64,000 nt of DNA from Escherichia coli. Its GTDB lineage: Bacteria > Pseudomonadota > Gammaproteobacteria > Enterobacterales > Enterobacteriaceae. The notes beneath the pieces were generated by a model. That model did no database searches. It was not told the origin of the DNA and was given only the letters and a program-made list of their open reading frames with translations. Each line of letters begins with the position of its first letter. Position 1 is the stretch's first letter. The position numbers were made by a program, and so were the translations under genes. Positions 2,472 through 20,565 of the stretch are shown here, in pieces. The stretch lies in the NCBI RefSeq assembly GCF_003019035.1, contig NZ_CP027447.1. The stretch is one strand, 5' to 3'.

Positions 2472-3524
2472 TCAAAGTTCCGCGTACATGCGACCGGGGT
2501 TAAACACGCCGCAAGGGTCGAGCTGCTGTTTAAGCTGCTGGTGATAGCGGAATAAAGGAGCCGGTAGCGGGGCAAAGCCACCATCTCCGGCACTAAAGCG
2601 GGTCGCATGACCGCCCGCGTTGCGGGCGATGCGATGGATTTGATTGTCATCGGCTGTCGATTTCAGCCAGCGTAGCGCCCCGCCCCAGTCGATCAGTTGC
2701 TCGCCGGGTAAATCTATCATCGGCGCATCGCTGGGTAAGGAAATGCGCCATAAGGTACCTGGTAACGAGAAGAACGGCAGTTGTTGTTCACGCAATTGCT
2801 GCCAGAACTGACCCGCAACCTCTTCGCCCCCCAGCAGTTCACGCGCTGCTTTTACCGATCCTTCGCCGCCCTCAAGGCGGATCCACAACGCATTGTCGAA
2901 GTAACATAAGCCACTAATGGGTAATGGCTGGAGTTGCCACTGGGCGATTTCATTCATGGCTTCTTGCAGGCTGATTTCCCGACGCAGGCTCAGGGAGGCG
3001 CGCGGTCGCGGTAACACTTTCATCGAGATTTCAGTGAGCACGCCAAGACAACCGTAGCTTCCGGCCATTAACCGTGAGAGATCGTATCCGGCAACGTTTT
3101 TCATCACTTCACCACCAAAACGCAGATGTTTTCCAGTGCCGGTAATGATGCGCGTGCCGAGGACAAAATCGCGGACCGAACCGCTCCACGGGCGACGCGG
3201 CCCCGCCAGCCCGCAGGCGACCATCCCGCCCCAGGTGGCTTCTTCACCATAATGTGGCGGCTCGCAGGGGAGCATTTGCCCGGCGCTCTCCAGCGCCGCT
3301 TCAATCGCCACCAGCGGCGTTCCGGCACGAGCGGTTATCACCAGCTCGGTCGGGTCGTAATTAACAATGCCGCGATGACAACGCACATCCAGCGTTTGCC
3401 CGGTGACAGGACGACCTAAAAAGGCTTTGCTATTGCTGCCCTGAATCACCAGCGGCGTTTTATCGCTAATCGCCTGATTCACCTGCTCCAGCAGCGCCTG
3501 GCTGTAATCACACTCGCGTAGCAT
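2472..3524 (-). CDS. glcE: glycolate oxidase FAD-binding subunit
   Basis: 350-aa ORF, FAD-binding PCMH-type domain; 1-nt overlap with glcD stop. Confidence 0.9.
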   Translation of the reverse strand: MLRECDYSQALLEQVNQAISDKTPLVIQGSNSKAFLGRPVTGQTLDVRCHRGIVNYDPTELVITARAGTPLVAIEAALESAGQMLPCEPPHYGEEATWGGMVACGLAGPRRPWSGSVRDFVLGTRIITGTGKHLRFGGEVMKNVAGYDLSRLMAGSYGCLGVLTEISMKVLPRPRASLSLRREISLQEAMNEIAQWQLQPLPISGLCYFDNALWIRLEGGEGSVKAARELLGGEEVAGQFWQQLREQQLPFFSLPGTLWRISLPSDAPMIDLPGEQLIDWGGALRWLKSTADDNQIHRIARNAGGHATRFSAGDGGFAPLPAPLFRYHQQLKQQLDPCGVFNPGRMYAEL

Positions 3525-5023
3525 CAGAAACGCTCCAGTTCAGGGAAAGGTAAATGACCGTGATGCACATGCATGGCACCAAATTCAGCACAGCGGTGTA
3601 GCGTGGGAATGTTTTTCCCAGGGTTCAGCAAACCATCGGGGTCAAACGCCGCCTTGACCGCATGGAAGGTCGTGATTTCATCGCTGTTGAACTGGGCGCA
3701 CATTTGATTGATTTTTTCGCGCCCAATGCCATGTTCCCCACTGATGCTGCCGCCAACTTCAACGCAAAGTTCGAGGATCTTCCCGCCCAGCTCTTCCGCG
3801 CGGGCAAATTCACCGGGTTCGTTGGCATCGAAAAGGATTAACGGGTGCATGTTGCCGTCTCCGGCATGAAAGACGTTGGCAACGCGTAAATCATATTGCT
3901 GCGATAAACGGGCAATGCCTTCCAGTACGCCAGGCAGCGCGCGGCGTGGGATGGTGCCATCCATACAGTAGTAATCCGGGGAAATGCGCCCCACTGCCGG
4001 GAATGCGTTCTTGCGGCCGGCCCAGAAACGTACGCGCTCTGCTTCGTCCTGTGCCAGACGGACGTCAGTCGCGCCCGCTTTCAACAAGATGTCGTTAACC
4101 CGCTCGCAGTCTTCCTGTACGTCAGACTCCACGCCGTCCAGCTCGCACAATAAAATCGCTTCGGCATCGACGGGATAACCGGCATGTATAAAATCTTCCG
4201 CCGCGCGGATCGACAGGTTATCCATCATCTCCAGCCCGCCGGGGATAATGCCATTGGCGATGATGTCACCAACCGCAAGTCCGGCTTTTTCTACCGAGTC
4301 AAAGCTGGCTAACAGCACCCGCGCCACGGGCGGCTTCGGCAGCAGTTTTACCGTCACTTCGGTGGTCACGCCGAGCATACCTTCCGATCCGGTAAACAGC
4401 GCCAGCAGGTCAAAACCAGGCGAATCCAGCGCGTCCGATCCCAGCGTCAGCGCCTCGCCATCCAGCGTTTGCACTTCAATTTTCAGCAGGTTATGTACGG
4501 TTAGACCATATTTCAGGCAGTGAACGCCACCGGCATTTTCCGCCACATTGCCGCCAATCGAACAGGCGATTTGTGAGGACGGATCCGGCGCGTAATAGAG
4601 ATTATGCGGCGCAACGGCCTGGGAGATCGCCAGGTTACGCACGCCCGGCTGCACGCGCGCACGGCGACCAACGGGGTTAATGTCGAGGATCTCTTTAAAG
4701 CGCGCCATCACCAACAACACACCTTTTTCCAGCGGCAGCGCGCCACCAGAAAGCCCGGTGCCTGCGCCACGGGTCACCACCGGCACACGCAGGCGGTGGC
4801 AGACAGCCAGAATCGCCGTCACCTGTTCCATCTGCTTAGGCAGAACAACCAGTAATGGACGCGTGCGATACGCGCTCAACCCGTCACACTCGTAAGGAAT
4901 GATCTCCTCATCGGTATGCAGGATCTCCAGTCCAGGGACATGCTCACGCAGTGCCATCAGTACCGATGTGCGGTCGACATCGGGTAAAGCGCCATCAAGA
5001 CGCTCTTCGTACAAGATGCTCAT
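3524..5023 (-). CDS. glcD: glycolate oxidase subunit GlcD (FAD-linked oxidase)
   Basis: 499-aa ORF, FAD-linked oxidase family; first gene of the minus-strand glc operon. Confidence 0.9.
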   Translation of the reverse strand: MSILYEERLDGALPDVDRTSVLMALREHVPGLEILHTDEEIIPYECDGLSAYRTRPLLVVLPKQMEQVTAILAVCHRLRVPVVTRGAGTGLSGGALPLEKGVLLVMARFKEILDINPVGRRARVQPGVRNLAISQAVAPHNLYYAPDPSSQIACSIGGNVAENAGGVHCLKYGLTVHNLLKIEVQTLDGEALTLGSDALDSPGFDLLALFTGSEGMLGVTTEVTVKLLPKPPVARVLLASFDSVEKAGLAVGDIIANGIIPGGLEMMDNLSIRAAEDFIHAGYPVDAEAILLCELDGVESDVQEDCERVNDILLKAGATDVRLAQDEAERVRFWAGRKNAFPAVGRISPDYYCMDGTIPRRALPGVLEGIARLSQQYDLRVANVFHAGDGNMHPLILFDANEPGEFARAEELGGKILELCVEVGGSISGEHGIGREKINQMCAQFNSDEITTFHAVKAAFDPDGLLNPGKNIPTLHRCAEFGAMHVHHGHLPFPELERF

Positions 5024-6044: not shown

Positions 6045-7187
6045 TCAAATCTGCTTTTCATACAATCGGTAACGCTTGTACGGCTCCGCCCCAATGCGTT
6101 CCAGCATGTTATTCATGCCTGTATTGGTTTCGAGGATCCATGACATCTCCAGCGCATCGATCTTCCGGCGGGCAAACGGATCGCGTAAGGCTTCAATCAA
6201 TAACAACGCAATCACCGGGCCGATGCGGCTGAACTGATACTCGTCCCGCACGCCCATCAGCGGTACTCGCGCAGTTCGCACACCGCTGACTTTTAAACGC
6301 CACAGCAATTTTGCCCAGCCGAAGGGAAAGAGCGATCCGTTCAGATCGGCAATCGCCTCGTTGATGTTTGGCAAGCCGACAATAAACGCGCAGGGTGCAG
6401 AATCAATCTCAGCGATGTAGATCATATCGTCCGGCACCAGATATTTAAGTTGGTCGCCCATGGTCGCGAATTCATGTTCGGTAAACGGCACAAATCCCCA
6501 GTTGTGCTGCCAGCCAGAATTGAAAATCTCACGCAGGATCTGCATCTCTTCGGCAAACCGCTGGCGATTGATGCAGCGAATGGTCACCTTCTTACGCACC
6601 TGATCCATCAGTTTTTTTAGCGCCGGAGAGAAAGTGAGATCGGTTCGCTGCATCCACCACGCCAGTAAATCAATGCCTTTGTGATAACCCAATTGTTCAA
6701 TATGCGCGGCATACCACGGTTTACCGTGCGGCATCATCGCACAGGGTGGTGTATCGAAACCTTCAATCAGTAATCCGCTTTCCTGATTGATATTCAGGCT
6801 GAAAGGCCCGCTGATCTTACTTGCACCTTGTGACTTCAACCACGCTTCCGCTGCGCCAAACAACGCGGCAAAAACCTGCGGATCATCAATGGCGTCAATC
6901 ATGCCGAAATGACCGGTATCTTTGCCGTAACGCTCGCGGTGCAAGGTATCTATTTGCGCGGTAATACGCCCAACTATCTGCCCCGCTTTTTTTGCCACCC
7001 ACGCCTGCCAGATGATATGGTCCGTCCCCGGATTTTTCGCAGACAAATGCTCGTTGCGTTCAATGAATAAAGGGGGTATCCAGTTTGGATCGTCGGGATA
7101 AAGTGATGACGGAAAAGCGATAAATGCCTTAAGGTCATTTTTATTAATTACTTTTTCAATTTTAATCATCAGCAGATCGCATTCCAT
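6045..7187 (-). CDS. yghO: GNAT-like N-acyltransferase, candidate amine N-acylating enzyme (possible ceramide-synthase analogue)
   Basis: 380-aa ORF recognised as YghO; acyl-CoA N-acyltransferase-like fold assignment is from memory of the family, not a motif I can point to; start could be 7169 (MIKIEKV). Confidence 0.7.
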   Translation of the reverse strand: MECDLLMIKIEKVINKNDLKAFIAFPSSLYPDDPNWIPPLFIERNEHLSAKNPGTDHIIWQAWVAKKAGQIVGRITAQIDTLHRERYGKDTGHFGMIDAIDDPQVFAALFGAAEAWLKSQGASKISGPFSLNINQESGLLIEGFDTPPCAMMPHGKPWYAAHIEQLGYHKGIDLLAWWMQRTDLTFSPALKKLMDQVRKKVTIRCINRQRFAEEMQILREIFNSGWQHNWGFVPFTEHEFATMGDQLKYLVPDDMIYIAEIDSAPCAFIVGLPNINEAIADLNGSLFPFGWAKLLWRLKVSGVRTARVPLMGVRDEYQFSRIGPVIALLLIEALRDPFARRKIDALEMSWILETNTGMNNMLERIGAEPYKRYRLYEKQI

Positions 7188-7530: not shown

Positions 7531-9282
7531 TTGATATCCAATTTTTTCGTGGTGTATATGTCTAATAAAATCTTTACGCATTCCCTACCTATGCGCTATG
7601 CCGATTTTCCAACGCTGGTTGATGCTTTGGACTATGCCGCTCTGAGTAGCGCTGGAATGAATTTTTATGACAGACGTTGCCAACTTGAAGATCAACTGGA
7701 ATATCAGACGTTAAAAGCGCGTGCCGAAGCTGGTGCGAAGCGGTTGTTATCGCTGAACCTGAAAAAAGGCGATCGCGTGGCACTGATTGCCGAAACCAGT
7801 AGCGGGTTCGTAGAGGCTTTTTTTGCCTGCCAGTATGCCGGCTTAGTCGCCGTCCCGTTGGCGATTCCCATGGGCGTCGGTCAGCGGGATTCCTGGAGCG
7901 CCAAGCTGCAGGGTTTACTGGCAAGTTGCCAGCCCGCAGCCATTATCACTGGTGATGAGTGGTTGCCACTGGTCAATGCCGCGACGCATAACAACAACCC
8001 CGAATTACATGTTTTAAGCCACGCCTGGTTTAAGGCATTACCGGAAGCCGATGTTGCGCTCCAGCGTCCAGTTCCGAACGATATCGCCTACCTCCAGTAC
8101 ACCTCCGGCAGCACCCGTTTTCCCCGTGGCGTCATTATCACCCATCGCGAAGTGATGGCTAATCTACGTGCTATAAGCCACGATGGCATAAAATTACGCC
8201 CTGGCGACCGCTGCGTCTCCTGGCTGCCTTTCTACCATGATATGGGACTGGTCGGCTTTCTCCTGACCCCCGTCGCCACGCAGCTTTCAGTAGATTATTT
8301 GCGCACTCAGGATTTTGCCATGCGTCCTCTGCAATGGCTTAAATTGATCAGTAAAAATCGCGGCACCGTTTCCGTTGCGCCGCCGTTTGGCTATGAATTG
8401 TGCCAGCGCCGCGTGAATGAAAAAGATCTCGCTGAACTGGATCTTTCCTGCTGGCGCGTCGCTGGTATTGGTGCAGAACCCATCTCCGCAGAACAACTCC
8501 ATCAATTCGCTGAATGTTTCCGTCAGGTCAACTTTGACGATAAAACTTTCATGCCGTGCTACGGACTGGCAGAAAATGCGCTGGCTGTCAGCTTCTCTGA
8601 TGAAGCTTCCGGGGTTGTGGTTAACGAAGTGGATCGCGACATCCTCGAATATCAGGGCAAAGCCGTCGCGCCGGATGCTGAAACACGCGCCGTATCGACT
8701 TTCGTCAACTGCGGTAAAGCGTTGCCGGAACATGGCATTGAAATCCGCAATGAAGCAGGTATACCTGTCGCGGAACGTGTGGTAGGCCATATTTGCATCT
8801 CCGGCCCTAGCCTGATGAGCGGTTACTTTGGCGACCAGATTTCACAAGACGAGATTGCCGCGACGGGCTGGTTAGACACCGGCGACCTCGGTTATCTGCT
8901 GGACGGTTATCTGTATGTCACCGGACGCATTAAAGATCTGATTATTATTCGTGGCCGTAATATCTGGCCGCAGGATATTGAATATATTGCGGAACAGGAA
9001 CCGGAAATTCATTCTGGCGATGCGATTGCTTTTGTTACCGCCCAGGAAAAAATCATTTTGCAGATCCAGTGTCGGATCAGCGATGAAGAACGTCGCGGGC
9101 AGCTTATCCACGCGCTGGCAGCACGGATCCAAAGCGAATTTGGTGTGACCGCGGCTATCGATCTGTTGCCGCCCCACAGTATTCCCCGAACGTCCTCCGG
9201 CAAGCCTGCCCGTGCGGAAGCGAAAAAACGTTATCAGAAGGCTTATGCTGCAAGCCTTCATGTGCAGGAATCCCTGGCATGA
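7531..9282 (+). CDS. fatty acyl-AMP ligase / acyl-ACP synthetase (AMP-binding superfamily)
   Basis: 583-aa ORF with adenylation motif YTSGSTRFPRGV and C-terminal SSGKPAR-type motif; start may be 7558 or 7591; stop overlaps next start (ATGA). Confidence 0.8.
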   Translation: MISNFFVVYMSNKIFTHSLPMRYADFPTLVDALDYAALSSAGMNFYDRRCQLEDQLEYQTLKARAEAGAKRLLSLNLKKGDRVALIAETSSGFVEAFFACQYAGLVAVPLAIPMGVGQRDSWSAKLQGLLASCQPAAIITGDEWLPLVNAATHNNNPELHVLSHAWFKALPEADVALQRPVPNDIAYLQYTSGSTRFPRGVIITHREVMANLRAISHDGIKLRPGDRCVSWLPFYHDMGLVGFLLTPVATQLSVDYLRTQDFAMRPLQWLKLISKNRGTVSVAPPFGYELCQRRVNEKDLAELDLSCWRVAGIGAEPISAEQLHQFAECFRQVNFDDKTFMPCYGLAENALAVSFSDEASGVVVNEVDRDILEYQGKAVAPDAETRAVSTFVNCGKALPEHGIEIRNEAGIPVAERVVGHICISGPSLMSGYFGDQISQDEIAATGWLDTGDLGYLLDGYLYVTGRIKDLIIIRGRNIWPQDIEYIAEQEPEIHSGDAIAFVTAQEKIILQIQCRISDEERRGQLIHALAARIQSEFGVTAAIDLLPPHSIPRTSSGKPARAEAKKRYQKAYAASLHVQESLA

Positions 9283-10193
9283 ATCAAACTGTCGCGGTGA
9301 CGGGCGCTACCGGGTTTATCGGTAAATATATTATCGATAACCTGCTCGCCCGCGGCTTTCACGTTCGCGCATTGACGCGTACTGCCCGTGCTCACGTCAA
9401 TGACAATCTCATCTGGGTGCGCGGTTCTCTGGAAGATACTCATTCACTTAGCGAACTGGTTGCCGGAGCCAGCGTGGTGGTCCATTGCGCCGGGCAAGTG
9501 CGCGGGCACAAAGAAGAGATTTTTACCCGCTGTAACGTTGACGGCAGCCTGCGACTGATGCAAGCGGCAAAAGAGAGCGGCTTTTGCCAACGTTTTCTGT
9601 TTATCTCTTCGCTGGCGGCGCGCCATCCCGAACTCTCCTGGTACGCAAATTCCAAACACGTCGCCGAACAACGGCTGACTGCAATGGCTGATGAAATTAC
9701 GCTGGGCGTTTTTCGCCCGACAGCCGTGTATGGTCCCGGCGATAAAGAGTTAAAACCGCTGTTTGACTGGATGCTGCGCGGCCTGCTGCCACGACTTGGT
9801 GCGCCAGATACACAACTCTCTTTCCTGCACGTCACCGATTTTGCGCAAGCAGTGGGTCAGTGGTTAAGCGCCGAAACTGTACAGACGCAAACCTATGAAT
9901 TATGCGATGGCGTCGCTGGCGGCTATGACTGGCAACGCGTACGACAGCTTGCCGCCGAAGCCCGTTGTGGTTCTGTGCAGATGGTTGGCATTCCTCTGCC
10001 GGTACTCACCTGCCTTGCGGATATCAGTACTGCGTTGAGTCGCCTGGCAGGTAAAGAACCTATGCTGACCCGCTCGAAAATTCGTGAATTAACCCACGCC
10101 GACTGGTCGGCAAATAATAACCGTATTTCTGAAGATATTAATTGGTTTCCCGGGATTAGCCTGGAACACGCATTACGCAACGGGCTATTTTGA
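9279..10193 (+). CDS. NAD(P)-dependent epimerase/dehydratase-fold reductase
   Basis: 304-aa ORF; N-terminal Rossmann motif VTGATGFIGKYI; translationally coupled to upstream ligase. Confidence 0.8.
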   Translation: MNQTVAVTGATGFIGKYIIDNLLARGFHVRALTRTARAHVNDNLIWVRGSLEDTHSLSELVAGASVVVHCAGQVRGHKEEIFTRCNVDGSLRLMQAAKESGFCQRFLFISSLAARHPELSWYANSKHVAEQRLTAMADEITLGVFRPTAVYGPGDKELKPLFDWMLRGLLPRLGAPDTQLSFLHVTDFAQAVGQWLSAETVQTQTYELCDGVAGGYDWQRVRQLAAEARCGSVQMVGIPLPVLTCLADISTALSRLAGKEPMLTRSKIRELTHADWSANNNRISEDINWFPGISLEHALRNGLF

Positions 10194-10224
10194 TTGTCTT
10201 GTTTAAAGGTGTGTTAACGTTTCT

Positions 10225-10473
10225 ATGGTAAATCGTGAAATAGTAATGGATTACATCCTTTCCTGTTTACAGGATTTGGTCGAAAACGGTGTGGAAATTA
10301 AGCCCAACAGCGATCTCGTCAACGATCTTGGCCTGGAGTCGATCAAAGTGATGGATCTCTTAATGATGCTGGAAGACAGATTCGATATTTCCATTCCTAT
10401 TAATATTCTGCTGGATGTCAAAACCCCTGTGCAATTAATGGAAACTCTACTTCCATGGCTGGAGAATAAATAA
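10225..10473 (+). CDS. acyl carrier protein (dedicated)
   Basis: 82-aa acidic ORF with phosphopantetheine-attachment-type motif DLGLESIKVMDL; stop overlaps next start (TAATG); start may be 10246. Confidence 0.75.
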   Translation: MVNREIVMDYILSCLQDLVENGVEIKPNSDLVNDLGLESIKVMDLLMMLEDRFDISIPINILLDVKTPVQLMETLLPWLENK

Positions 10474-11645
10474 TGGGGCTATACGATAAATATGCGCGCC
10501 TTGCTGGCGAGCGACTGCAATTTAGTGACAACGGGTTAACGCCGTTTGGTACCTGTATTGATGAAGTGTATTCCGCCACCGAAGGTCGGATCGGCAATAA
10601 AAAAGTGATTCTGGCCGGGACCAATAATTATCTCGGTTTAACCTTTAATCATGATGCCATCGCCGAAGGTCAGGCAGCGTTAGCGGCCCAAGGCACCGGC
10701 ACCACCGGTTCTCGTATGGCTAATGGCAGTTATGCGCCGCATCTGGCGTTAGAGAAAGAGATTGCCGAGTTTTTCAATCGCCCTACCGCTATCGTTTTTT
10801 CAACCGGTTATACCGCTAATTTAGGCGTCATCAGCGCACTTGCCGACCATAACGCCGTGGTGTTACTGGATGCCGACAGCCACGCCAGTATTTATGACGC
10901 CTGTTCTCTCGGTGGCGCGGAAATTATTCGTTTCCGCCATAACGATGCTAAAGATCTGGAACGGCGCATGGTTCGCCTCGGTGAACGGGCGAAAGAGGCG
11001 ATTATCATCGTTGAGGGCATCTACAGCATGCTCGGTGACGTTGCGCCGTTAGCGGAAATTGTTGATATCAAACGTCGTCTCGGTGGTTATTTGATTGTCG
11101 ATGAAGCGCATTCGTTTGGCGTGTTAGGCGCAACGGGGCGCGGACTGGCTGAAGCCGTTGGCGTTGAAGATGATGTGGATATTATCGTTGGTACTTTCAG
11201 TAAAAGTCTGGCCTCGATTGGCGGTTTTGCTGTCGGTTCGGAAGCGATGGAAGTGTTGCGCTACGGCAGCCGCCCGTATATTTTTACCGCCTCTCCTTCT
11301 CCGTCCTGCATTGCGACCGTGCGCTCGTCGTTAAGAACCATTGCCTCACAACCAGAGCTGCGGCAAAAGCTGATGGATAACGCCAACCATCTGTATGACG
11401 GTCTGCAAAAACTGGGTTATGAGTTAAGTTCACATATTAGCCCGGTAGTGCCGGTAATAATCGGTTCGAAAGAGGACGGTTTACGCATCTGGCGCGAGCT
11501 TATTTCGCTGGGCGTTTATGTGAATCTTATCCTGCCACCTGCCGCGCCTGCAGGCATCACTCTGCTGCGCTGTAGCGTAAACGCTGCCCACAGTCATGAG
11601 CAAATCGATGCCATCATTCAGGCATTTGCTACTCTGAAGCAGTAA
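10473..11645 (+). CDS. PLP-dependent alpha-oxoamine synthase (serine palmitoyltransferase / KBL / BioF family)
   Basis: 390-aa ORF; class-II aminotransferase fold with PLP-lysine motif GTFSKSLASIGGF; K-12 bioF and kbl are located elsewhere. Confidence 0.8.
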   Translation: MGLYDKYARLAGERLQFSDNGLTPFGTCIDEVYSATEGRIGNKKVILAGTNNYLGLTFNHDAIAEGQAALAAQGTGTTGSRMANGSYAPHLALEKEIAEFFNRPTAIVFSTGYTANLGVISALADHNAVVLLDADSHASIYDACSLGGAEIIRFRHNDAKDLERRMVRLGERAKEAIIIVEGIYSMLGDVAPLAEIVDIKRRLGGYLIVDEAHSFGVLGATGRGLAEAVGVEDDVDIIVGTFSKSLASIGGFAVGSEAMEVLRYGSRPYIFTASPSPSCIATVRSSLRTIASQPELRQKLMDNANHLYDGLQKLGYELSSHISPVVPVIIGSKEDGLRIWRELISLGVYVNLILPPAAPAGITLLRCSVNAAHSHEQIDAIIQAFATLKQ

Positions 11646-11679
11646 TGTGAGCCCGCCGTGGTGTTGCGCCACGGCGGGT

Positions 11680-12759
11680 TTAATGTTGTCTGTCATACCA
11701 ATACACCAGGCTCAACGCCATCAGGACAAACGCTACCGGTAAACCGAGCGCGGTAACAGGTGCACTCAACGCAAATAGCAACCCCAGATTGACCATGATT
11801 TGATAGCTGATCCAGGTGAGTAAGCCAACGATGACGCCTACAGCGAGACGGCTACCCATCCCTGGCGAGCGCGGGGCGCTAAAGGTGAACGGCACAGCCA
11901 GCAAAATCATCGCCAGGGTCAGGATCGGTTGCCCCAGTTTTTCCCACAGTGCAAGGCGGTATTCGCTGCTGGGTTGTCCGGTTTCCTGCAAATAATGGAT
12001 GTAATGATTAAGCTGACGGACAGAAAAAGTATTCCCCGGCATCGATAACTCTTCAAGATCCATACTGGTGAAGGCCGATTGCCAGGCAAGATTATCTGAT
12101 GTTTCCAGCGTTTCTTTGCCATTCAACCATTTTTTATGATTCACACCATGCAGGATCCACGTTTTGTCGTCTTCAATGGAGGCACTGCGTGCAAAAATGT
12201 AGGATTCGAGCGAGAGATCGTCGCGATAATGAAATATCTCCACGCCCACAGGCTGGCCCTGCTCGTTCAGCGATTTCACCGTCACAAATTCATTACCGCG
12301 CCTGGCCCAAAGCATATTGCCGGTAATGTCATCGTCCTCCCCCAACGCGGTGGCAGTCGATTTGATTTGCAGCGCCTGTTGCTGCAATGGCGACGCCACC
12401 CACTCATCTATCGCGCCTAACGAAACAGTCCACAATATCCCGGCAACCAGCGCCACCAGTGCAATACGGAAGATAGAAAACCCAGTGCTGCGAATGGCGG
12501 TAAGCTCACTGTTTTTCGATAACTGCCCCAGGCCAACAATCCCTCCCAATAATGCGATAAATGGCGAAAGTTCGACCAGTGTACGCGGTAAGGTCATCAG
12601 CACCACCAGCACCGCCTGAGTCCAGCGATAACCGCCCGGGCTGACATCATCCAGTTCGTTAATCAGGTTGAAGGTGGTAAAAAGCGGCAGCAATAGCCCT
12701 GCGGCGGCGGCAAAACCGAGAAAGAGATGACGGATTAAATAGCGACTGAAAACATTCAT
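11680..12759 (-). CDS. LptG-like permease (YjgP/YjgQ family)
   Basis: Multi-pass membrane ORF; start set at MNVFSRYLIRH so that it overlaps the upstream gene stop by 4 nt (longest ORF extends to 12840). Confidence 0.7.
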   Translation of the reverse strand: MNVFSRYLIRHLFLGFAAAAGLLLPLFTTFNLINELDDVSPGGYRWTQAVLVVLMTLPRTLVELSPFIALLGGIVGLGQLSKNSELTAIRSTGFSIFRIALVALVAGILWTVSLGAIDEWVASPLQQQALQIKSTATALGEDDDITGNMLWARRGNEFVTVKSLNEQGQPVGVEIFHYRDDLSLESYIFARSASIEDDKTWILHGVNHKKWLNGKETLETSDNLAWQSAFTSMDLEELSMPGNTFSVRQLNHYIHYLQETGQPSSEYRLALWEKLGQPILTLAMILLAVPFTFSAPRSPGMGSRLAVGVIVGLLTWISYQIMVNLGLLFALSAPVTALGLPVAFVLMALSLVYWYDRQH

Positions 12760-13826
12760 CGGGAAAATTTCTGCAGCAAAGAGAAGTCGCGTGCGACCAG
12801 CATCAGCAGGCCCATTAGCATGAGTCCGGGTACTAACCACAAACCAGGAATGAGGGGAATCGCACCGTTAGCCACCAGCGTACGGCAGACGTCGCCGCCA
12901 TAAAAAATGGCAACAAACAGCAACGTCAGTGGCAATAACGTTGAAAATCGCCCTTGCCGCGGTTTTACCCGACTTAATGAAATGGCCAGCAGCGCCATCA
13001 ACAATGCGGTCAGGCCACGGCTTTGTCGCCATTGCAGTTCGGCATGATCGGCTGGAAAGACGGAGCGCGCCAGCTCCGTGACCGATTTTGCTTTGCGTTT
13101 GACGTTAGGGCTTTGATCCAGCTGATTCAGATGTAATTGCAGATTACGGTAGATCTGTTCGTTGTCGTCACGCCCCTGATGATCGAGAAGATAGGCGGTC
13201 CCGTTATGCAACATAACGGTCGGTTTCTCAGGTGATGGGTCAACCACATCAACCGAACGGGCGCGGAAAATGCGGGTTCGATTGGCAGTAGAAGTATAAA
13301 TCAGCGCGTCAGTCAGGCGATTATTATCCTGATCAACCGTCTGCGAAAGGATCATTCGTCCGTTATCGTTAGTGTTAAATTTCTTTGCCCGCAACTGGCG
13401 AACATCCAGCTCCGACTGCGACTGTTGCTCCAGTTGATAAATCTGCGCATAAGCCCACGGCCGACCATACATCGACAGAAGGGTGACAAAAATACTTAGC
13501 GGTATCGCCAGATAAAGAACGGCTTTGTACAAGCGTCCCGGACTGCCCCCCGCCGCAGAGATAGCGGTAATTTCCGAGTCGGTATACATCTGCCCTAGCG
13601 TCACGCCAACTGACACATACAGACCAACAGGTAACAACATCTCCAGTGCAATCAGCACTTTGTAGAAAACGATATCCAGCACAACATCAAGAGCTAAGGT
13701 CCCATTTGCCGCTTCGGTCAGATAACGCTGTGCGGAGTAGCTGGCGAAAATAAAGATCAGAAAACCGACGATAATCAGCACCAGACGGCGCGTACCACGC
13801 ATGATGTAGTGTTCAACCAGCTTCAT
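12756..13826 (-). CDS. LptF-like permease (YjgP/YjgQ family)
   Basis: 356-aa ORF, N-terminal TM helices, large periplasmic loop, C-terminal TM helices; paired with LptG-like gene. Confidence 0.7.
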   Translation of the reverse strand: MKLVEHYIMRGTRRLVLIIVGFLIFIFASYSAQRYLTEAANGTLALDVVLDIVFYKVLIALEMLLPVGLYVSVGVTLGQMYTDSEITAISAAGGSPGRLYKAVLYLAIPLSIFVTLLSMYGRPWAYAQIYQLEQQSQSELDVRQLRAKKFNTNDNGRMILSQTVDQDNNRLTDALIYTSTANRTRIFRARSVDVVDPSPEKPTVMLHNGTAYLLDHQGRDDNEQIYRNLQLHLNQLDQSPNVKRKAKSVTELARSVFPADHAELQWRQSRGLTALLMALLAISLSRVKPRQGRFSTLLPLTLLFVAIFYGGDVCRTLVANGAIPLIPGLWLVPGLMLMGLLMLVARDFSLLQKFSR

Positions 13827-13856
13827 CTCACTAACACCCTCAATCCTTTGAATTTT

Positions 13857-14420
13857 TTATTCATTGATCAGTTTCTGCGCCAGCGCAATGACATGATCTA
13901 CCTCTTCCGGCGTCAGGCTGCCGTCCTTTGCCCACTGAATTTGCCCGTCTTTATTCAGCACCAGAATGGTTGAACTCTGCTCCGGCAACCGCCAGGCAAC
14001 GCGTCCCAGTCCATTGCCGTCAATAACGAATTGCGCCCACGGATAGCGGCGTTTATTTTTTTCGATTTTGCCAACGACAAAATAGCCAGTACCGAAGATG
14101 GCATCATCGGTGTTCACAATGGTGGTGGGCTGAAAACGATCCTGCGGAAAGTTTGCCGCTTCAACCGCTTTAATTAACAGTGAGTTCTTTTTCTTCGCCG
14201 ACTTACGCCCGGCGATATACTGAATAATGCGGACTTTTCCCGCCAGCTGTGTGCTGTTCCACTTTTGGTAGTGAATTTCGTCGTCGCTATTCAGAAGCAG
14301 CTCGCCGCCTTCCTGGATATAAACGGGGGTAACCGTTTTGCCAGTGACGAAATTGTGTGCCTGCACACCCTGGGCTAAGAGCATGATAATCAGCGCAATA
14401 ATCAAACGAGATGACATCAT
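13857..14420 (-). CDS. secreted/periplasmic protein of unknown function (possibly thioredoxin-like fold)
   Basis: 187-aa ORF with N-terminal signal peptide MMSSRLIIALIIMLLAQGVQA; fold assignment is a guess. Confidence 0.55.
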   Translation of the reverse strand: MMSSRLIIALIIMLLAQGVQAHNFVTGKTVTPVYIQEGGELLLNSDDEIHYQKWNSTQLAGKVRIIQYIAGRKSAKKKNSLLIKAVEAANFPQDRFQPTTIVNTDDAIFGTGYFVVGKIEKNKRRYPWAQFVIDGNGLGRVAWRLPEQSSTILVLNKDGQIQWAKDGSLTPEEVDHVIALAQKLINE

Positions 14421-14428
14421 TGCTCCGG

Positions 14429-15253
14429 TTATAGCGGAAAACGCGAAATCAGCAGCTCTAAGCGCTGGCGAATATCGCTATCCAGCGCCACCGGTGCATC
14501 ATACGACTGGCGGTTTTCCATATCATCCGCCACCATGTCGTCGTGTTTATCCCCCATCAGGCCATTAATGGCGGCGAGGAAGCGGGAAATCTGTAACGCC
14601 TCTTTATTTTCAGGATCAAGCGATCTTAAGGTGTCGTAATAAGAAACCTGCTGGCTGATGATTTTTCGCACATCATGAAATTCCCTGCCGGTGAGTCGCG
14701 GTTTGGCAATTATCTCTTTCAGGGTATGCATTTGCTTTTGCCGATAGGCAATAAAACCGCTTACGCTTTCTAACTGGCTATGGCGTAATGAATAGTTCAC
14801 CAACGACCAGACCGGAGAGCTTAAATAAACCCGTAACAGGTTGCCGTAATACGACACAATATTTTTCTTACCGTTACGAAAACCGTCCTGAAAACGCCCC
14901 AAAAAAACGGTCGTTTTGCCGAATAAAAATCCGGCCTGATGCTTCTTTAAATACAGCCGTTGCGCAAAACGCAGGTGCTTGTAGCGCGCTCGCATGTATT
15001 TATACTTTTTGCGCTCATCGTCGGTAAGTATTTTGCCTTTTGCTTGTTTCAGCGTTAAGCGAAGTAACTCTTTGCGATTTACACCATCCAGCCAGAATCT
15101 CAAACATAAGGCATAATTGTCATGAATAATCTCCGGTGAACAGCGCAAAGTGATCGTTGGCGGCAAGCTAACCTGTGTGTCAATAACATCATTATCATCA
15201 ACAGCAATAAATAAACGCTCAATGACCTCAAGTGGAAAGTATTTTCTCATCAT
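14429..15253 (-). CDS. hypothetical basic protein, no recognisable domain
   Basis: 274-aa ORF; start overlaps yghQ stop (ATGA coupling) so likely translated. Confidence 0.55.
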   Translation of the reverse strand: MMRKYFPLEVIERLFIAVDDNDVIDTQVSLPPTITLRCSPEIIHDNYALCLRFWLDGVNRKELLRLTLKQAKGKILTDDERKKYKYMRARYKHLRFAQRLYLKKHQAGFLFGKTTVFLGRFQDGFRNGKKNIVSYYGNLLRVYLSSPVWSLVNYSLRHSQLESVSGFIAYRQKQMHTLKEIIAKPRLTGREFHDVRKIISQQVSYYDTLRSLDPENKEALQISRFLAAINGLMGDKHDDMVADDMENRQSYDAPVALDSDIRQRLELLISRFPL

Positions 15254-16602
15254 TGGAATTTTTCTCCGACTCCGTTATAGACCAATAAATGGCGACGGAG
15301 AAAAGTCCTTAATGTCGGTGCTAACGACAGGATCACATCCAGACATTGACCACCGAAATAAGCAAATGCAGCCCCCATTACGCCAAACAGATGACAAAAC
15401 ATAAACAACAAAATAACGTAAGCTAACGATGCAATAGTTTGTGCTATCAAAAAAGCGCGCTGTTTTCCCGCCATCAATAGCAATGACTCCTGAGGGAAGC
15501 CCAGCATCGAGATCACAATTGCGCCCAGCATCACCTGAATCAGGTCATACGCTTCGAGATACTTAACGCCAAACACCAGCGAAATAAGCGGCTTGCCGAC
15601 GATCAACACCGCGAGCGCCACCAGAATTCCGATTCCGCCCGCCAGTAAACCTGACTTCACGCCTAACAACCACGGTCTGGTGGTGCGCGGATCTAAACGC
15701 ATCACCTCTGGGTAAAAACTTTTGCCCAGTAAACCCGCTGGCGTTCCGGCGGCGTCGAAGAATGTCATGGCGATTTTAAATAACCCGGCGGCAGCGGGTC
15801 CTAACACGATCCCCACCAGCACTGTGCTGCACGAGTTACGCGCCGACCAGATGGAGTGGGCAATGTTGGTTGACCAGACAAAACTCCACGCGCCTTTGAT
15901 GTGTCGGGCAGACTCAAACAGATTCAATTTGAACGCGTTATGGATATTTCTGCGGCGTAATTCGCGCGCGGCAAACCACCAGTACATGGTGCCGCCAACC
16001 AGATTCGACACGTACCAGGCAATAACAAAGCCCGCAAAACCAAAGTCAAAATACCAGGCTACGACGCTCCCCGCTGCGCGCAGAAAAGGTTTCGTCGCTT
16101 GCTGTACAGCAATTAGATCGAAGCGATCTACCGCACGCAGAATGCCGGTCGGCGTGGAGGAAGCCATTGAAGGAATGAGCGTGCAATACAGCGCTGCCAG
16201 CCAAAAGCTTTGGTCATCCAGACCTAATGAATGGGAAAGAAAAGGGAGTAAGGCAATGCCGCCGACAATCGCCACCGCGCCGCTGACGATATCCAGCGAG
16301 AAGGAAAATGAGACGACATTGCGGAATTGCTGCGGATTATTGTTGGTTAATGCTGGTGTTCCGTACTGAACCACCAGCTGCCATGTCTGAAACTTAATAA
16401 AATCGCTGATCGACTTGGCGTACGATTGTACAATCACCAGTACGCCAAACATGGCGGGCGTCATCCCTTTACCGGCACACGAGAGCGCCAACAGACCCAG
16501 TAAAGCGCTCACGACATTACTGGAGCCTAACCAGGCGCTATTGCGAATAATGGTGCGAAACGCGCCATCTGCAAACCAATGTTTGATGTTAAAACCCGCC
16601 AA
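15250..16602 (-). CDS. yghQ: MOP-superfamily (Wzx/MurJ-like) flippase, full length
   Basis: 450-aa polytopic membrane ORF; recognised as YghQ but longer than the 355 aa I recall for K-12; start uncertain. Confidence 0.75.
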   Translation of the reverse strand: MAGFNIKHWFADGAFRTIIRNSAWLGSSNVVSALLGLLALSCAGKGMTPAMFGVLVIVQSYAKSISDFIKFQTWQLVVQYGTPALTNNNPQQFRNVVSFSFSLDIVSGAVAIVGGIALLPFLSHSLGLDDQSFWLAALYCTLIPSMASSTPTGILRAVDRFDLIAVQQATKPFLRAAGSVVAWYFDFGFAGFVIAWYVSNLVGGTMYWWFAARELRRRNIHNAFKLNLFESARHIKGAWSFVWSTNIAHSIWSARNSCSTVLVGIVLGPAAAGLFKIAMTFFDAAGTPAGLLGKSFYPEVMRLDPRTTRPWLLGVKSGLLAGGIGILVALAVLIVGKPLISLVFGVKYLEAYDLIQVMLGAIVISMLGFPQESLLLMAGKQRAFLIAQTIASLAYVILLFMFCHLFGVMGAAFAYFGGQCLDVILSLAPTLRTFLRRHLLVYNGVGEKFQ

Positions 16603-16647: not shown

Positions 16648-17406
16648 TTAAGTTAAACTTCGGCGGTCAGAAACGATGGCAACCAGAGAAACCGCCTTCT
16701 GTGCCTGTTCCAGCACTTCGCTGTAAGGCGCTCTGGAATCAATCTCAAGAATTTTTGTGCCGTTATAGCCAATCGTCGACATGACGCCGATTTTGTCCTG
16801 CAGCTCGGCATAGTCATGGTCAGGCTTGCGGGAGATGGCAGTATCAATATCAATCCCCAAACGAATGATTAATTCAGGACGGTATTGCGCCATTTGTTGG
16901 TATAAACGCCGTTCGCGCTGCGCCAGAAACATGCTGATTTTCCCGGTCGCACGTTCGACGCCGATCCCCGGTCCGTCATAATAAAAGCCCGAAATTTCAG
17001 CCTGCGGGAAGCGATCGCTGACCACCAGAACGCCACTTTGCGCCAGTCGCTGAACCTTGCGTAGATTCGCCATTCTTCGCAGCGAGAAGCAGTACATAAT
17101 CACCGCCGCCCATACCGCCGGAGATTTGGTTTTCATGCTTTGGGTTTTCGAGGATTTGGCCGCCAGTCGCCGTTCGAGCCAGACGCCAACCAACGGCAAT
17201 CGTTTGATTTTGTCGCCGTCTTCGCCCGAGAGCAGCCCCAGATAGCGCCGCTCGGTTTGCCAGTGTTGTTGCAGCGATTTCACGAGGTCGGTGGTCAGTG
17301 TGGATTTACCGGTGCCATCACACCCGACCACCGCAATCAGCCCCGGAATGTAGTTGGGCTGCGGCGCGGTTGTACTATTAACAGTTTGTGTTTGTAGTGC
17401 GTCCAT
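16648..17406 (-). CDS. yghR: P-loop NTPase/kinase-like protein
   Basis: Walker A GCDGTGKST; conserved SDRFP and ARKPDH motifs shared with yghS and yghT; no ABC signature LSGGQ. Confidence 0.8.
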   Translation of the reverse strand: MDALQTQTVNSTTAPQPNYIPGLIAVVGCDGTGKSTLTTDLVKSLQQHWQTERRYLGLLSGEDGDKIKRLPLVGVWLERRLAAKSSKTQSMKTKSPAVWAAVIMYCFSLRRMANLRKVQRLAQSGVLVVSDRFPQAEISGFYYDGPGIGVERATGKISMFLAQRERRLYQQMAQYRPELIIRLGIDIDTAISRKPDHDYAELQDKIGVMSTIGYNGTKILEIDSRAPYSEVLEQAQKAVSLVAIVSDRRSLT

Positions 17407-17437: not shown

Positions 17438-18151
17438 TCAGGAAAGCGCAGCGTGAATTGCGCGTAGTGACGCTTGCAGAATTTCATCGGCTGGTTGCCG
17501 ACCATCCAGTTCAAGGATCTTTGCGCCATTGAATGTCAGTTGCGGCGTAACGGCGATTTTTTCCTGTAACGCTGCCAGTTGGTGGTCAGGTTTACGCGCA
17601 AACGCGGTTTGTTCATCAATGCCAAGACGAATCAACAATACGGGCAAATAAGACGCCATCCATTGGTACAGCTTCAGCTCGCGCTGCCTTAACATTTTTA
17701 TCCAACCGTTACCGCCCGTGGTTTTTGCCAATTGCGGGCCATCAAAGCGAAAACCCGGCACTTCAACCTGCGGGTAGCGGTCGGTGATGAGCAGATAGCC
17801 TTGCTGGCTTTTACACAACATTTTGCGAAACTTGTACGCCCGCCAGCAGGAAAGCAGATAGATAACCAGCGCAGTAATATTGCCAGGCGGTGTGGAGGGC
17901 TTTTCGTGCACATGTGCCGCTTTACTTCGCAGATAACGCCCAAAAGGTGCGCCAATAACAGGGAGCTGTGAAATCCATTCGCCAATTCGCCCGGACGATT
18001 GCCCGAGATAAATGTGTTCTGTTGGCATTGTTGCTGCCAGTTCATTTACCAGGCTTGCCGTGAGGGTCGATTTACCTGAACCATCACATCCTACAATGGC
18101 AATAACACGCACTGGCGTGGAATTAATTATTGACATATTACGTTGATTCAC
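17438..18151 (-). CDS. yghS: P-loop NTPase/kinase-like protein (paralogue of yghR)
   Basis: Walker A GCDGSGKST; TDRYP and ARKPDH motifs. Confidence 0.8.
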   Translation of the reverse strand: MNQRNMSIINSTPVRVIAIVGCDGSGKSTLTASLVNELAATMPTEHIYLGQSSGRIGEWISQLPVIGAPFGRYLRSKAAHVHEKPSTPPGNITALVIYLLSCWRAYKFRKMLCKSQQGYLLITDRYPQVEVPGFRFDGPQLAKTTGGNGWIKMLRQRELKLYQWMASYLPVLLIRLGIDEQTAFARKPDHQLAALQEKIAVTPQLTFNGAKILELDGRQPADEILQASLRAIHAALS

Positions 18152-18324: not shown

Positions 18325-19017
18325 ATGCAGTCAATAACACCTCCATTAATTGCCGTTATTGGTAGCGATGGTTCAGGCAAGTCAACGGTGTGTGAACATC
18401 TCATTACCGTTGTCGAAAAATATGGTGCTGCCGAAAGAGTTCATTTAGGAAAACAGGCCGGAAATGTCGGTCGTGCAGTGACAAAATTACCGTTGATGGG
18501 AAAATCCTTACATAAAACAATTGAACGAAATCAGGTGAAAACAGCAAAAAAATTGCCAGGACCAGTTCCGGCGCTGGTAATTACAGCGTTTGTCGCCCGT
18601 CGCTTACTGCGCTTTCGTCATATGCTTGCCTGTCGTCGTCGCGGGTTAATTGTTCTAACCGACCGTTATCCTCAGGACCAAATTCCTGGCGCTTACGATG
18701 GTACAGTGTTCCCACCTAACATTGAAGGTGGTCGTTTTGTCTCATGGCTGGCAAGCTAGGAACGTAAAGCGTTTCACTGGATGGCGAGCCATAAACCGGA
18801 TCTGGTCATCAAACTCAATGTTGACCTTGAAGTTGCCTGCGCGCGTAAACCCGACCATAAACGGGAATCGCTGGCGAGGAAGATTGCCATAACGCCACAG
18901 TTAACCTTTGGCGGTGCACAACTGGTTGATATCGATGCTAATCAGCCACTGGAAAAGGTGCTGATTGATGCAGAAAAAGCGATTACGGATTTTATGACCG
19001 CGCGTGGTTATCACTAG
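18325..19017 (+). pseudogene. yghT: P-loop NTPase/kinase-like protein interrupted by an in-frame TAG at 18757-18759
   Basis: 144-aa and 78-aa ORFs are in the same frame; the 693-nt span is 231 codons (230 aa plus stop) with one internal TAG; Walker [10 protein letters not shown]. Confidence 0.6.
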
Positions 19018-19065: not shown

Positions 19066-20565
19066 TTAAATCAACTGCAATGCTATCCAGTACAACCCAC
19101 CAGAAAGAAAAATCGCCGCCGGTAAAGTAAACACCCACGCCATCAGGATGCTGGTTACCGTTTTACGCTGTAACCCACCGCCGTCCACCACCATCGTCCC
19201 TGCTACCGCAGACGAGAGGACGTGTGTTGTGGAGACGGGCATCCCAATATAACTGGCAAGGCCGATAGACACTGCCGCCGTCATTTGTGCCGCCATGCCT
19301 TGCGCATACGTCATGCCGCGCTTACCAATCTTCTCACCGATGGTCATCGCTACACGACGCCAGCCAATCATGGTGCCGATGCCGAGCGCCAGTGCTACCG
19401 CCATGATGATCCACACCGGTGCGTACTCAATGGTGCTTAACATATCGCTGCGCAGTTTTTTCAGCAGGTTCTGGTCTTCTTTACTGACGCCTGGCAGTTT
19501 CGCCAGCTTCGCGGAGGTATCAGAGATGCACAGCATAATGCGGCGCAGCTGGCTGCGCTGACTCACGCTTAACGGCTCGTAACTTTCCATATTGCCTGGC
19601 AGCATCGTTTTAACGCGCGCAATCGCATCAAAGGTATTTGCCGGATGACAGTGAAACTCTGTTACTTGCGTGCCATCAGTCGATGTCGCAGGCAATGGAG
19701 GTTCCATCGTAATCAACTTCTGCGGCAGTTCAGGATGCTGTTGCAGGTAGTGTTCGAAGTTGGTGACGGCATCGCGGGTACGGGTAATTTCATAGCCGGA
19801 CGCGTTCATATTGACGACGAAGCCAGCAGGGGCAATCCCCACCAGTACCAGCATCACCAGGCCGATCCCTTTCTGCCCGTCGTTCGCGCCGTGCGAAAAC
19901 GCCACGCCCGCAGCGGAAACAATCAGCGCAATACGCGTCCAGAATGGCGGCTTACGTTTGCCTTTTTTCTTTTTGCGATCTTCCGGAATGCGGTGAATAC
20001 GGTCACGCTTTTTCGTCCCGCTCCAGAAACGGCGCAGCAGGAAAATCAGACCACCCGCAATGACCAGGCCGACGATAGGGGAAACAATCAGCGAGGAGAA
20101 AATTTTGGTCACTTCACGCAGGTTTAACGCATCCATCACCGATGAGCCGGTTAACAGCGCGTTGGTTAAACCGATGCCGATAATCGCACCAATCAAGGTA
20201 TGCGAACTGGAGGCCGGTAAACCAAAGAACCACGTTCCCAGGTTCCAGATAATCGCCGCCAGCAGCATGGAAAAGACCATCGCCAGGCCGTGAGTTGACC
20301 CCATATTCAGCAACAAATCGGTTGGCAACATATGGACAATGGCATAGGCAACGCTAAGTCCGCCTAGCAATACGCCAAAAAAGTTAAAAAATGCCGCCAT
20401 CACCACAGCAAGTTGTGGTTGCATGGCACGAGTATAAATAACGGTTGCCACCGCATTCGCCGTGTCATGAAAACCATTGATTGCTTCGTAGAACAACACA
20501 AATGCCAGAGCAAGTAATAACAAAAGCCCTGTGTATATATCAAGGCCAACAAATAAATTTAGCAT
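19066..20565 (-). CDS. pitB: low-affinity inorganic phosphate transporter
   Basis: 499-aa ORF with PitA/PitB-type sequence ([35 protein letters not shown]); position next to yghT. Confidence 0.9.

Follow-up and report, generated by a model that had tools for sequence, protein, structure and literature searches.

The window, a 64,000-nucleotide stretch of Escherichia coli contig NZ_CP027447.1 (assembly GCF_003019035.1), carries on its minus strand two adjoining genes, ybl138 and ytfJ2, which lie in an envelope-lipid export operon between a MOP flippase gene (yghQ) and the genes for two LptF/LptG-type permeases (lptF2 and lptG2; Table 1). The 274-residue product, Ybl138, is predicted to have a CHAD fold that retains the phosphate-binding motifs of this family, and the 187-residue product, YtfJ2, is a paralogue of the core protein YtfJ. 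The unit that is conserved around ybl138 consists of the flippase, the CHAD-like protein and thymidylate-kinase-like proteins, and not of the permeases with accessory proteins. We give about even chances to a reading in which Ybl138 would be a phosphate-polyanion-binding partner of the flippase/kinase module and YtfJ2 would serve this export route from the periplasm. An initial annotation, made without database searches, had recognized both open reading frames, their lengths and their position in the operon, all of which are confirmed. Its view that neither protein could be placed in a family is superseded, as YtfJ2 passes the cutoff of TIGR01626 and Ybl138 is best described as a divergent CHAD protein.

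Predicted fold of Ybl138

A search with the single Ybl138 sequence returned nothing in Pfam, NCBIfam or the PDB. Its homologues number 308 in a 90%-identity cluster database and are unnamed save for scattered annotations ('CHAD domain-containing protein'; 'TPR repeat protein, clustered with yghQ'); one hybrid homologue, labelled 'type II secretion system protein GspM', carries a PF04612 domain. A Ybl138 profile run against 1.84 billion representative proteins (50%-identity library) recovered 295 clusters, mostly of 270–300 residues. Tests for a CHAD fold were undertaken because the conserved motifs of Ybl138 resembled the repeated CHAD motif. When a profile of 91 sequences was compared with the PDB, the best match was the CHAD structure 6qv5 (E 0.0029), with both motif helices in register. 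CHAD was also the sole recurring family in a Pfam scan of the 91 relatives (3 at E ≤ 1e-3 and 21 at E ≤ 0.1; best 2.5e-5), and a fused relative has a faint precomputed Pfam CHAD match.

The AlphaFold2 model of Ybl138 is all helical, with eleven helices, and is of high confidence, with a pLDDT score (for predicted local distance difference test) of 96.9 and a predicted template modelling (pTM) score of 0.93. As in the CHAD architecture, the helices form two four-helix bundles related by a pseudo-twofold symmetry, and the top match of the model in a Foldseek search of the PDB is again 6qv5 (probability 0.95). Orthologues in the AlphaFold Database from Sphingomonas, Zymomonas, Acetobacter, Komagataeibacter and others, with template modelling scores of 0.94–0.97, are automatically named 'CHAD domain-containing protein', while the E. 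coli entries bear the name Ybl138.

Residues R88, H193 and R196 are invariant in the 91 sequences, and K92, R95, H105, D123, K197, H237 and D238 are at least 90% conserved. In the profile alignment with 6qv5, K85/R88/K92/R95 and H193/R196 fall on the H-xx-R-xxx-R motifs, such that each half of the protein has one basic motif (K85-R88-K92-R95 and H193-R196-K197), as expected for a CHAD protein. In characterized CHAD domains, such motifs clamp the phosphate chain, and CtCHAD and SsCHAD bind polyphosphate (polyP) less well when the equivalent residues are mutated (PMC6537752).

Ybl138 would thus resemble known CHAD domains (PF05235; 6qv5 RcCHAD, 3e0s/6qva CtCHAD, 6rn5 PptA, 5a61 YgiF) in its two four-helix bundles of the 'long', ~300-residue type, in being a basic, stand-alone, one-domain protein, and in the paired H/K-xx-R-xxx-K/R motif on corresponding helices (PMC6537752). 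It differs in the replacement of the histidine of the first motif by lysine, and in a context of a MOP flippase and thymidylate-kinase-like proteins in sphingolipid loci instead of PPK, PPX or TTM. Its calculated pI of 9.64 and the lack of a hydrophobic segment (maximum Kyte-Doolittle value 0.74) agree with the basic, cytoplasmic-type protein of the initial annotation. Judged by sequence profiles and model, it belongs to a divergent CHAD subfamily that is barely reached by the Pfam model.

Conserved neighbourhood of ybl138

Both genes belong to a known accessory ceramide/sphingolipid locus of E. coli (yghO, aasR, cerR, acpR, spt). Its serine palmitoyltransferase (SPT; gene spt) scores 599 bits against an NCBIfam curated cutoff of 500, LptF2 and LptG2 likewise exceed their curated cutoffs, and the aasR product matches the NCBIfam fatty acyl-AMP ligase at 872 bits, also above the curated cutoff. 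In E. coli BL21(DE3), SPT, the dedicated acyl carrier protein (AcpR) and the acyl-ACP synthetase (AasR) of this locus are biochemically active, and the yghO product is assigned as 'aca' (PMC9386255); strain UTI89 has been shown to carry the same sphingolipid locus (bioRxiv 10.64898/2026.04.12.717747).

The stop codon of yghQ and the start codon of ybl138 overlap by 4 nt in an ATGA (15250–15253, CAATGATG), and the stop codon of ybl138 is followed after 8 nt (CCGGAGCA, with GGAG inside) by the ATG of ytfJ2, in line with the translational coupling proposed in the initial annotation. Downstream, a spacer of 30 nt separates the ytfJ2 stop from the lptF2 start, and lptF2 and lptG2 are joined by another ATGA overlap. 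The operon order is therefore yghS-yghR-yghQ-ybl138-ytfJ2-lptF2-lptG2.

A scan of one genome per species with two peptide patterns, built on 20 closer sequences, yielded 78 loci; the most distant CHAD-like relatives are under-sampled because the scan alignment consisted of these closer sequences. All 78 loci were mapped with 13 proteins of the E. coli locus, and 21 of them also by clustering of open reading frames. Of the 81 occurrences of a CHAD-like gene, 69 have yghQ immediately upstream in the same orientation, and in 66 of these 69 loci the gap between the yghQ stop and the CHAD-like start is −13 to +29 nt. This pairing spans Enterobacterales, Rhodanobacteraceae, Sphingomonadales and partly Acetobacteraceae, and two or three YghR/S-like genes adjoin the pair in nearly all loci. 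In Rhodanobacteraceae (Luteibacter, Dyella, Rhodanobacter), aasR-cerR-acpR-spt lies between yghR and yghQ. The taxa that carry the module are known or predicted to make sphingolipids (PMC9386255).

The lptF2 and lptG2 genes adjoin the yghQ/CHAD-like pair only in Enterobacterales, and even in this order not always: Sodalis, Rosenbergiella, Erwinia and Rahnella have lptF2 and lptG2 at another site or on the opposite strand, and yghQ and the CHAD-like gene are still joined. No lptF2 or lptG2 was found within 10 kb in the loci of Rhodanobacteraceae, Sphingomonadales and Acetobacteraceae. The CHAD-like gene tracks yghQ and the YghR/S/T genes, not LptF2G2.

A gene for a family 4 glycosyltransferase (GT4, ~361 residues) was observed in the neighbourhood of the module in Sphingobium, Acetobacter, Komagataeibacter and a betaproteobacterial metagenome-assembled genome (MAG). 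A record titled Martelella alba BGMRC 2031, nominally an alphaproteobacterium, shows the full enterobacterial gene order with 59–79% identity to the E. coli proteins, comparable to that of Serratia and Pantoea, and is probably a contaminated or misassigned assembly.

YtfJ2, a paralogue of core YtfJ

The 187-residue protein matches TIGR01626 (YtfJ family) with 216 bits (cutoff 151.1) over model positions 1–183 of 184, and Pfam PF09695 with an E-value of 1.9e-59 over positions 3–159 of 160; RefSeq already names the product as a member of the YtfJ family. Its N-terminus, MMSSRLIIALIIMLLAQGVQA followed by HNF, contains the most hydrophobic 19-residue Kyte-Doolittle window of the protein (1.93, at residue 1), and the A-H junction is invariant in 20 of 20 aligned family members. 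Based on the hydrophobic N-terminus and the cleavage junction, YtfJ2 is predicted to be a Sec-exported periplasmic protein. Mature YtfJ2 has a pI of 9.1, 8.4% lysine and no cysteine, which bears out the secreted, lysine-rich protein of the initial annotation. The features common with the YtfJ/HI0045 family (PF09695, TIGR01626) comprise the full-length match, the A-H-N/Q-F cleavage motif, the invariant residues and the lack of cysteines. No match to LptC/LptA-type or other lipid-carrier families was found for YtfJ2 in NCBIfam, Pfam or a profile search of the PDB, and neither Ybl138 nor YtfJ2 matches an Lpt component (LptC/LptA jellyroll, LptB ATPase) in NCBIfam or Pfam.

The core ytfJ gene adjoins cysQ and is found in 5409 of 5426 complete E. 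coli genomes; it is a sigma-E target and its product is described as periplasmic (PMC4447067). YtfJ2 and core YtfJ share 55% protein identity over the full length (~66% at the DNA level) and nearly all family-invariant residues. Since ytfJ2 does not occupy the position of the core gene (ytfK-cysQ), the two are not orthologous by position, and ytfJ2 is a paralogue of core ytfJ. It differs from the core gene in its location in a sphingolipid locus and in its presence in ~76% of complete E. coli genomes, compared to ~100%. Orthologues of YtfJ2 in other genera are 60–72% identical to it and thus resemble it more than does core YtfJ of the same genome, which implies an old duplication.

Among the 78 related loci, ytfJ2 is confined to Enterobacterales, where it adjoins ybl138 in 44 of 44 loci (43 directly downstream on the same strand). 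It holds this position in more than a dozen genera, among them Escherichia, Hafnia, Serratia, Pantoea, Erwinia, Rosenbergiella and Tatumella.

The P-loop proteins YghR, YghS and YghT

Single-sequence searches of the PDB with YghR and YghS gave no match; thymidylate kinases were reached by the family profile alone, as its best matches, with an E-value of 3e-7 and an alignment that covers P-loop, DR motif and lid. The Walker A and DR motifs show no variation among the 28 aligned sequences of the YghR/S/T type. As the E. coli locus has no LCB5-type kinase gene, these P-loop proteins are its sole candidates for head-group enzymes. A relation to CpgB, the ceramide kinase of Caulobacter, was considered for YghR/S/T and rejected, since CpgB has an LCB5/diacylglycerol-kinase domain with a GGDG motif, not a P-loop (PMC10331486).

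Comparison with known systems

A known sphingolipid locus of similar content is that of Caulobacter crescentus (CC_1152–CC_1168), in which ceramide genes are likewise found beside LptF/LptG paralogues and a Polysacc_synt-type flippase (LptF2, LptG2, LptC2, flippase CC_1166, CpgABC; PMC11324152). An anionic head group is central to sphingolipid biology in this organism (PMC11324152; bioRxiv 10.64898/2026.04.12.717747); LptF2, LptG2 and LptC2 become necessary once the cell makes an anionic sphingolipid, and LptF2G2 rely on the housekeeping LptB (bioRxiv 10.64898/2026.04.12.717747). The published descriptions mention no CHAD-like, YtfJ-like or thymidylate-kinase-like genes in the Caulobacter locus, whereas the E. 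coli locus lacks LptC2, a CpgB-type (LCB5) ceramide kinase, CpgA and CpgC. CC_1167 was considered as a counterpart of Ybl138 and rejected, as it is of the CDP-glycerol glycerophosphotransferase type (PMC11324152 supplement).

A second likeness is to the archaeal PPK3 operon of Sulfolobus acidocaldarius (saci_2018–2021), which encodes two thymidylate kinase (dTMPK) paralogues with a CHAD protein (PMC12995831). The resemblance is architectural only and consists of adjacent paralogues of the thymidylate-kinase superfamily together with a CHAD gene. In contrast to the archaeal operon, the E. coli module has no exopolyphosphatase, SixA or Pst genes nearby, its flippase gene sits between the kinase genes and the CHAD-like gene, and its three paralogues all have intact catalytic motifs and match the PPK3 structure via the P-loop only.

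Proposed function and alternatives

Given the observed families and fold, localization signals, gene coupling and co-occurrence, the ligand, partners and pathway step may be as follows. Ybl138 would be made in a fixed proportion with YghQ through translational coupling and belongs, with YghQ and YghR/S/T, to a conserved four-to-five-gene module of sphingolipid-making Proteobacteria. Its probable ligand, on the cytoplasmic face of the inner membrane, would be a phosphate-rich anion, the candidates being a lipid head group phosphorylated by the P-loop kinases, or polyP that these use or make. In this position, Ybl138 may be a substrate-presenting or regulatory partner of YghQ, one step before lipid extraction by LptF2G2. 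YtfJ2, a cysteine-free YtfJ duplicate apparently added to the locus by Enterobacterales, would act periplasmically on the same route; the missing LptC2 gene would leave room for such a role. A bolder version, which we regard as distinctly unlikely, has YghR/S/T phosphorylating ceramide at the cytoplasmic face and the CHAD-like protein gripping the phosphate chain and handing the lipid to YghQ, with LptF2G2, assisted in Enterobacterales by the basic YtfJ2, leading on to the outer membrane; the head group would then be an oligo- or polyphosphate, or phosphate derived from polyP. If this version were true, bacteria would have an anionic membrane lipid of a new class, and Ybl138 would be the first CHAD domain to act on a lipid.

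Several observations weigh against the assignment of Ybl138 and YtfJ2 to a phosphate-dependent export route. The literature examined reports no sphingolipid or phosphorylated ceramide in E. coli cells. In Sphingomonadales the module is not adjacent to spt, so that the link to sphingolipids there is a genome-level co-occurrence only. The usual polyP context of CHAD proteins is missing, as ppk, ppx, TTM and pst genes are absent from all neighbourhoods examined (the E. coli locus and the 78 loci, mapped with the 13 locus proteins and in 21 cases also by clustering of open reading frames). The structure of a PPK3 homologue (2plr/5h70) matches the YghR/S/T profile at an E-value of 0.0074 through the P-loop only; by sequence comparison, YghR/S/T appear no closer to this protein than to ordinary thymidylate kinases. 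Ybl138 itself has no match to the Pfam CHAD model (PF05235) even at an E-value of 10, and an hhalign comparison of the family profile with one CHAD sequence, that of E. coli YgiF, found no similarity (probability 0.2). The latter result is regarded as a lack of power, YgiF being one short and divergent CHAD sequence, and not as evidence against the fold. The AlphaFold2 model of YtfJ2, from 20 sequences, has a pLDDT of 50 and is unreliable, even if its beta-alpha order fits a thioredoxin-like fold, and the YtfJ family profile has no match in the PDB at an E-value of 10. The Pfam clan of the family likewise suggests a thioredoxin-like fold, here without redox cysteines; this fold is not confirmed and is not counted as a result.

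The CHAD fold with its phosphate-binding motifs, and the two or three adjacent dTMPK-superfamily paralogues, could instead point to a self-contained polyP module, a bacterial counterpart of PPK3, in which polyP would be a product or a substrate of the P-loop paralogues, the CHAD-like protein would attach to the polymer or its granule, and the position in the sphingolipid locus would reflect co-regulation, for example with phosphate or energy supply. The polyP operon of Sulfolobus, with cPPK3, rPPK3 and a CHAD protein (PMC12995831), offers a precedent, the module is apart from spt in Sphingomonadales, and the phosphate transporter gene pitB adjoins yghT in E. coli. We nevertheless consider this unlikely. 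The tightest and most constant neighbour of the CHAD-like gene encodes a membrane flippase, which would be superfluous in a soluble polyP system; ppx, sixA and pst are not among the neighbours; the P-loop proteins show no specific similarity to the PPK3 structure, and all three keep their catalytic motifs, unlike the inactive regulatory PPK3 subunit (PMC12995831). Moreover, the carriers are the known or predicted sphingolipid producers noted above (PMC9386255), and E. coli already has PPK1. Ybl138 might also be an enzyme that builds or trims a head group by phosphotransfer or phosphohydrolysis, with a metal bound by its histidine and aspartate residues (H105, D123, H193, H237-D238). These residues are at least 90% conserved, H193 being invariant, the locus holds no obvious head-group transferase besides the P-loop proteins, and an APH-type kinase domain occurs in fusion with distant relatives. 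This seems very unlikely to us, as the characterized CHAD structures have no conserved metal site and are reported to bind polyP, with no catalysis (PMC6537752), and as the most conserved positions are those of the phosphate-contacting CHAD motifs.

The initial annotation had envisaged YtfJ2 as a periplasmic shuttle for lipids from LptF2G2, and Ybl138 as an accessory or ATPase-adapter subunit of the same permeases. Both genes are indeed directly upstream of lptF2-lptG2 in one operon, ytfJ2 occurs only where LptF2G2 are present among the loci examined, and the E. coli locus is without the LptC2-type gene found in Caulobacter and could lack a periplasmic component (bioRxiv 10.64898/2026.04.12.717747). 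The CHAD-like gene, however, follows yghQ and the YghR/S/T genes, including in loci without lptF2G2 within 10 kb; LptF2G2 of Caulobacter bind the housekeeping LptB (bioRxiv 10.64898/2026.04.12.717747); YtfJ2 has no lipid-carrier match in the searches described above; and core YtfJ is present also in E. coli strains that lack the locus. The model as a whole is thus quite improbable. An accessory factor in the looser sense remains compatible with the data, whereas the ATPase adapter is unsupported; for YtfJ2 as a lipid shuttle, the data speak neither way. Finally, YtfJ2 could be a redundant duplicate that hitch-hikes in the operon with no function specific to the locus, given its 55% identity to the core copy, the near-complete set of common invariant residues and its absence from the non-enterobacterial versions of the module. 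We judge this highly improbable, in view of a position that is kept in 44 loci of more than a dozen genera, the purifying selection on ytfJ2 (omega, the dN/dS ratio, 0.16–0.20) and the higher identity to orthologues in other genera (60–72%) than to the paralogue in the same genome. The export-route reading, with Ybl138 on the cytoplasmic and YtfJ2 on the periplasmic side, is the one that we retain.

Relation to published work

The locus, its ceramide-synthesis genes and the idea of LptF2G2 are already published, the YtfJ assignment is in RefSeq, and many orthologues of Ybl138 are automatically named CHAD in UniProt. The accessible parts of the papers on the E. coli locus (PMC9386255; bioRxiv 10.64898/2026.04.12.717747) do not discuss Ybl138 or YtfJ2. 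In the literature examined, no functional study of either protein was found, E. coli Ybl138 is nowhere called CHAD-like, the module of flippase, CHAD-like and thymidylate-kinase-like proteins is undescribed, and CHAD domains are nowhere linked with lipid export.

The assignments remove two 'hypothetical' labels and bear on how bacterial sphingolipids cross the inner membrane and on which sphingolipid about three quarters of E. coli genomes could make. They would also extend the CHAD fold, so far tied only to polyP granules and polyP enzymes, to a membrane-lipid context. A phosphate-rich sphingolipid head group, and binding of polyP or oligophosphate by Ybl138, are testable leads; K-12 is naturally without both genes, and BL21 and uropathogenic strains carry both. 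If the lead is wrong, the gain in annotation remains, with one YtfJ paralogue and one CHAD-like protein.

Distant and duplicated relatives of Ybl138

The CHAD-like gene is tandemly duplicated in Luteibacter and present twice in a gammaproteobacterial MAG. In a metagenome contig, two copies are fused head-to-tail (564 residues) and flanked by YghR/S-like genes and a GT4 glycosyltransferase gene. Relatives of ~980 residues have a signal-like segment at the N-terminus together with an APH/choline-kinase-type domain (HGDLKPxNLFFD) and two CHAD-like domains. Other distant members also start with signal-like segments, and some adjoin the gene for the lipid-binding protein YceI (yceI), which hints that some relatives of Ybl138 may be exported. 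Among the fusion partners of the distant relatives, NCBIfam recognized only a cytidylyltransferase-like stretch in one protein of 2531 residues. The contexts of these relatives (YceI, TonB systems) are unlike the E. coli locus.

Organization of the locus in the window

The features of the locus are listed in Table 1. The regional gene order is glcDEC and yghO; aasR-cerR-acpR-spt on the plus strand; lptG2-lptF2-ytfJ2-ybl138-yghQ-yghR-yghS on the minus strand; and yghT, pitB and gss. Both ybl138 and ytfJ2 are annotated as coding sequences in RefSeq. The hairpin between the convergent spt and lptG2 genes is likely a two-way terminator that separates the two operons.

Table 1. Positions of the genes and other features of the sphingolipid locus in the window.
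Feature	Position	Strand	Description
yghO	6045–7187	−	Predicted acyl-CoA N-acyltransferase, bacterial ceramide synthase type; RefSeq annotation
aasR-cerR(epi)-acpR-spt	7558–11645	+	Early ceramide synthesis: acyl-AcpR formation, serine condensation to 3-oxo-sphinganine, predicted reductase
Hairpin	11648–11682		16 bp, GC-rich; between convergent spt and lptG2; terminator-like
lptG2	11680–12759 (RefSeq start)	−	LptG-type permease paralogue; TIGR04408, 304.7 bits (cutoff 240)
lptF2	12756–13826	−	LptF-type permease paralogue; TIGR04407, 319.5 bits (cutoff 230); analogous to Caulobacter LptF2 (bioRxiv 10.64898/2026.04.12.717747)
ytfJ2	13857–14420	−	187 residues; YtfJ-family paralogue with Sec-type signal; RefSeq start at 14417, the second Met (186 residues)
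ybl138 (CHAD-like gene)	14429–15253	−	274 residues; basic, cytoplasmic, predicted CHAD fold
yghQ	15250–16602	−	450 residues; MOP/Polysacc_synt-type flippase; weak NCBIfam MOP flippase match; Pfam PF01943 on orthologue
yghR	16648–17406	−	Thymidylate-kinase-superfamily P-loop protein; weak NCBIfam dTMP kinase match
yghS	17438–18151	−	Paralogue of yghR; first gene of the operon
Promoter-like site upstream of yghS	18229–18201	−
yghT	18325–19017	+	Third P-loop paralogue, divergently transcribed; in-frame TAG at 18757–18759

Distribution and allele history in E. coli

Both genes are carried by ~4120–4150 of 5426 complete E. coli genomes (~76%). In K-12 MG1655 (3130146–3132408), yghO is separated by an IS5 element from a 3'-truncated yghQ (355 residues), and the entire stretch from aasR through ybl138 is missing. 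K-12 is thus a natural, IS5-associated deletion of ybl138 and ytfJ2, which is why neither gene has a b-number.

Positions 13700–15400 (1701 nt) are 100% identical to E. coli SCU-301, and only three differences occur in the 23.7 kb compared, at 3233, at 19549 and in the yghT codon 18757–18759. This last codon is TAG here and CAG in SCU-301, a single C-to-T change that cuts the product to 144 residues. Compared to the typical E. coli allele, the ratio of nonsynonymous to synonymous substitution rates (dN/dS) is 0.15 for ybl138 (dS 0.33) and about 0.16–0.20 for ytfJ2 (dS 0.08), and both genes evolve under purifying selection (omega ~0.15). The difference in dS between the adjoining genes (0.33 versus 0.08) suggests an old recombination boundary between them.

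The ybl138 allele of this strain is rare and strongly divergent: of 4148 E. coli genomes, only 26 have an allele of at least 95% identity, whereas identity is 90–95% in 3598 and 80–90% in 524. The nearby pitB gene is 95–99% identical in 4821 E. coli genomes. In E. coli FDN-4, the annotation gives yghQ as a pseudogene interrupted by a stop codon, and a 1-nt length difference in ybl138 shifts its 3' end into an overlap with ytfJ2; the flippase/CHAD-like module decays in some E. coli lineages, of which FDN-4 is an example.

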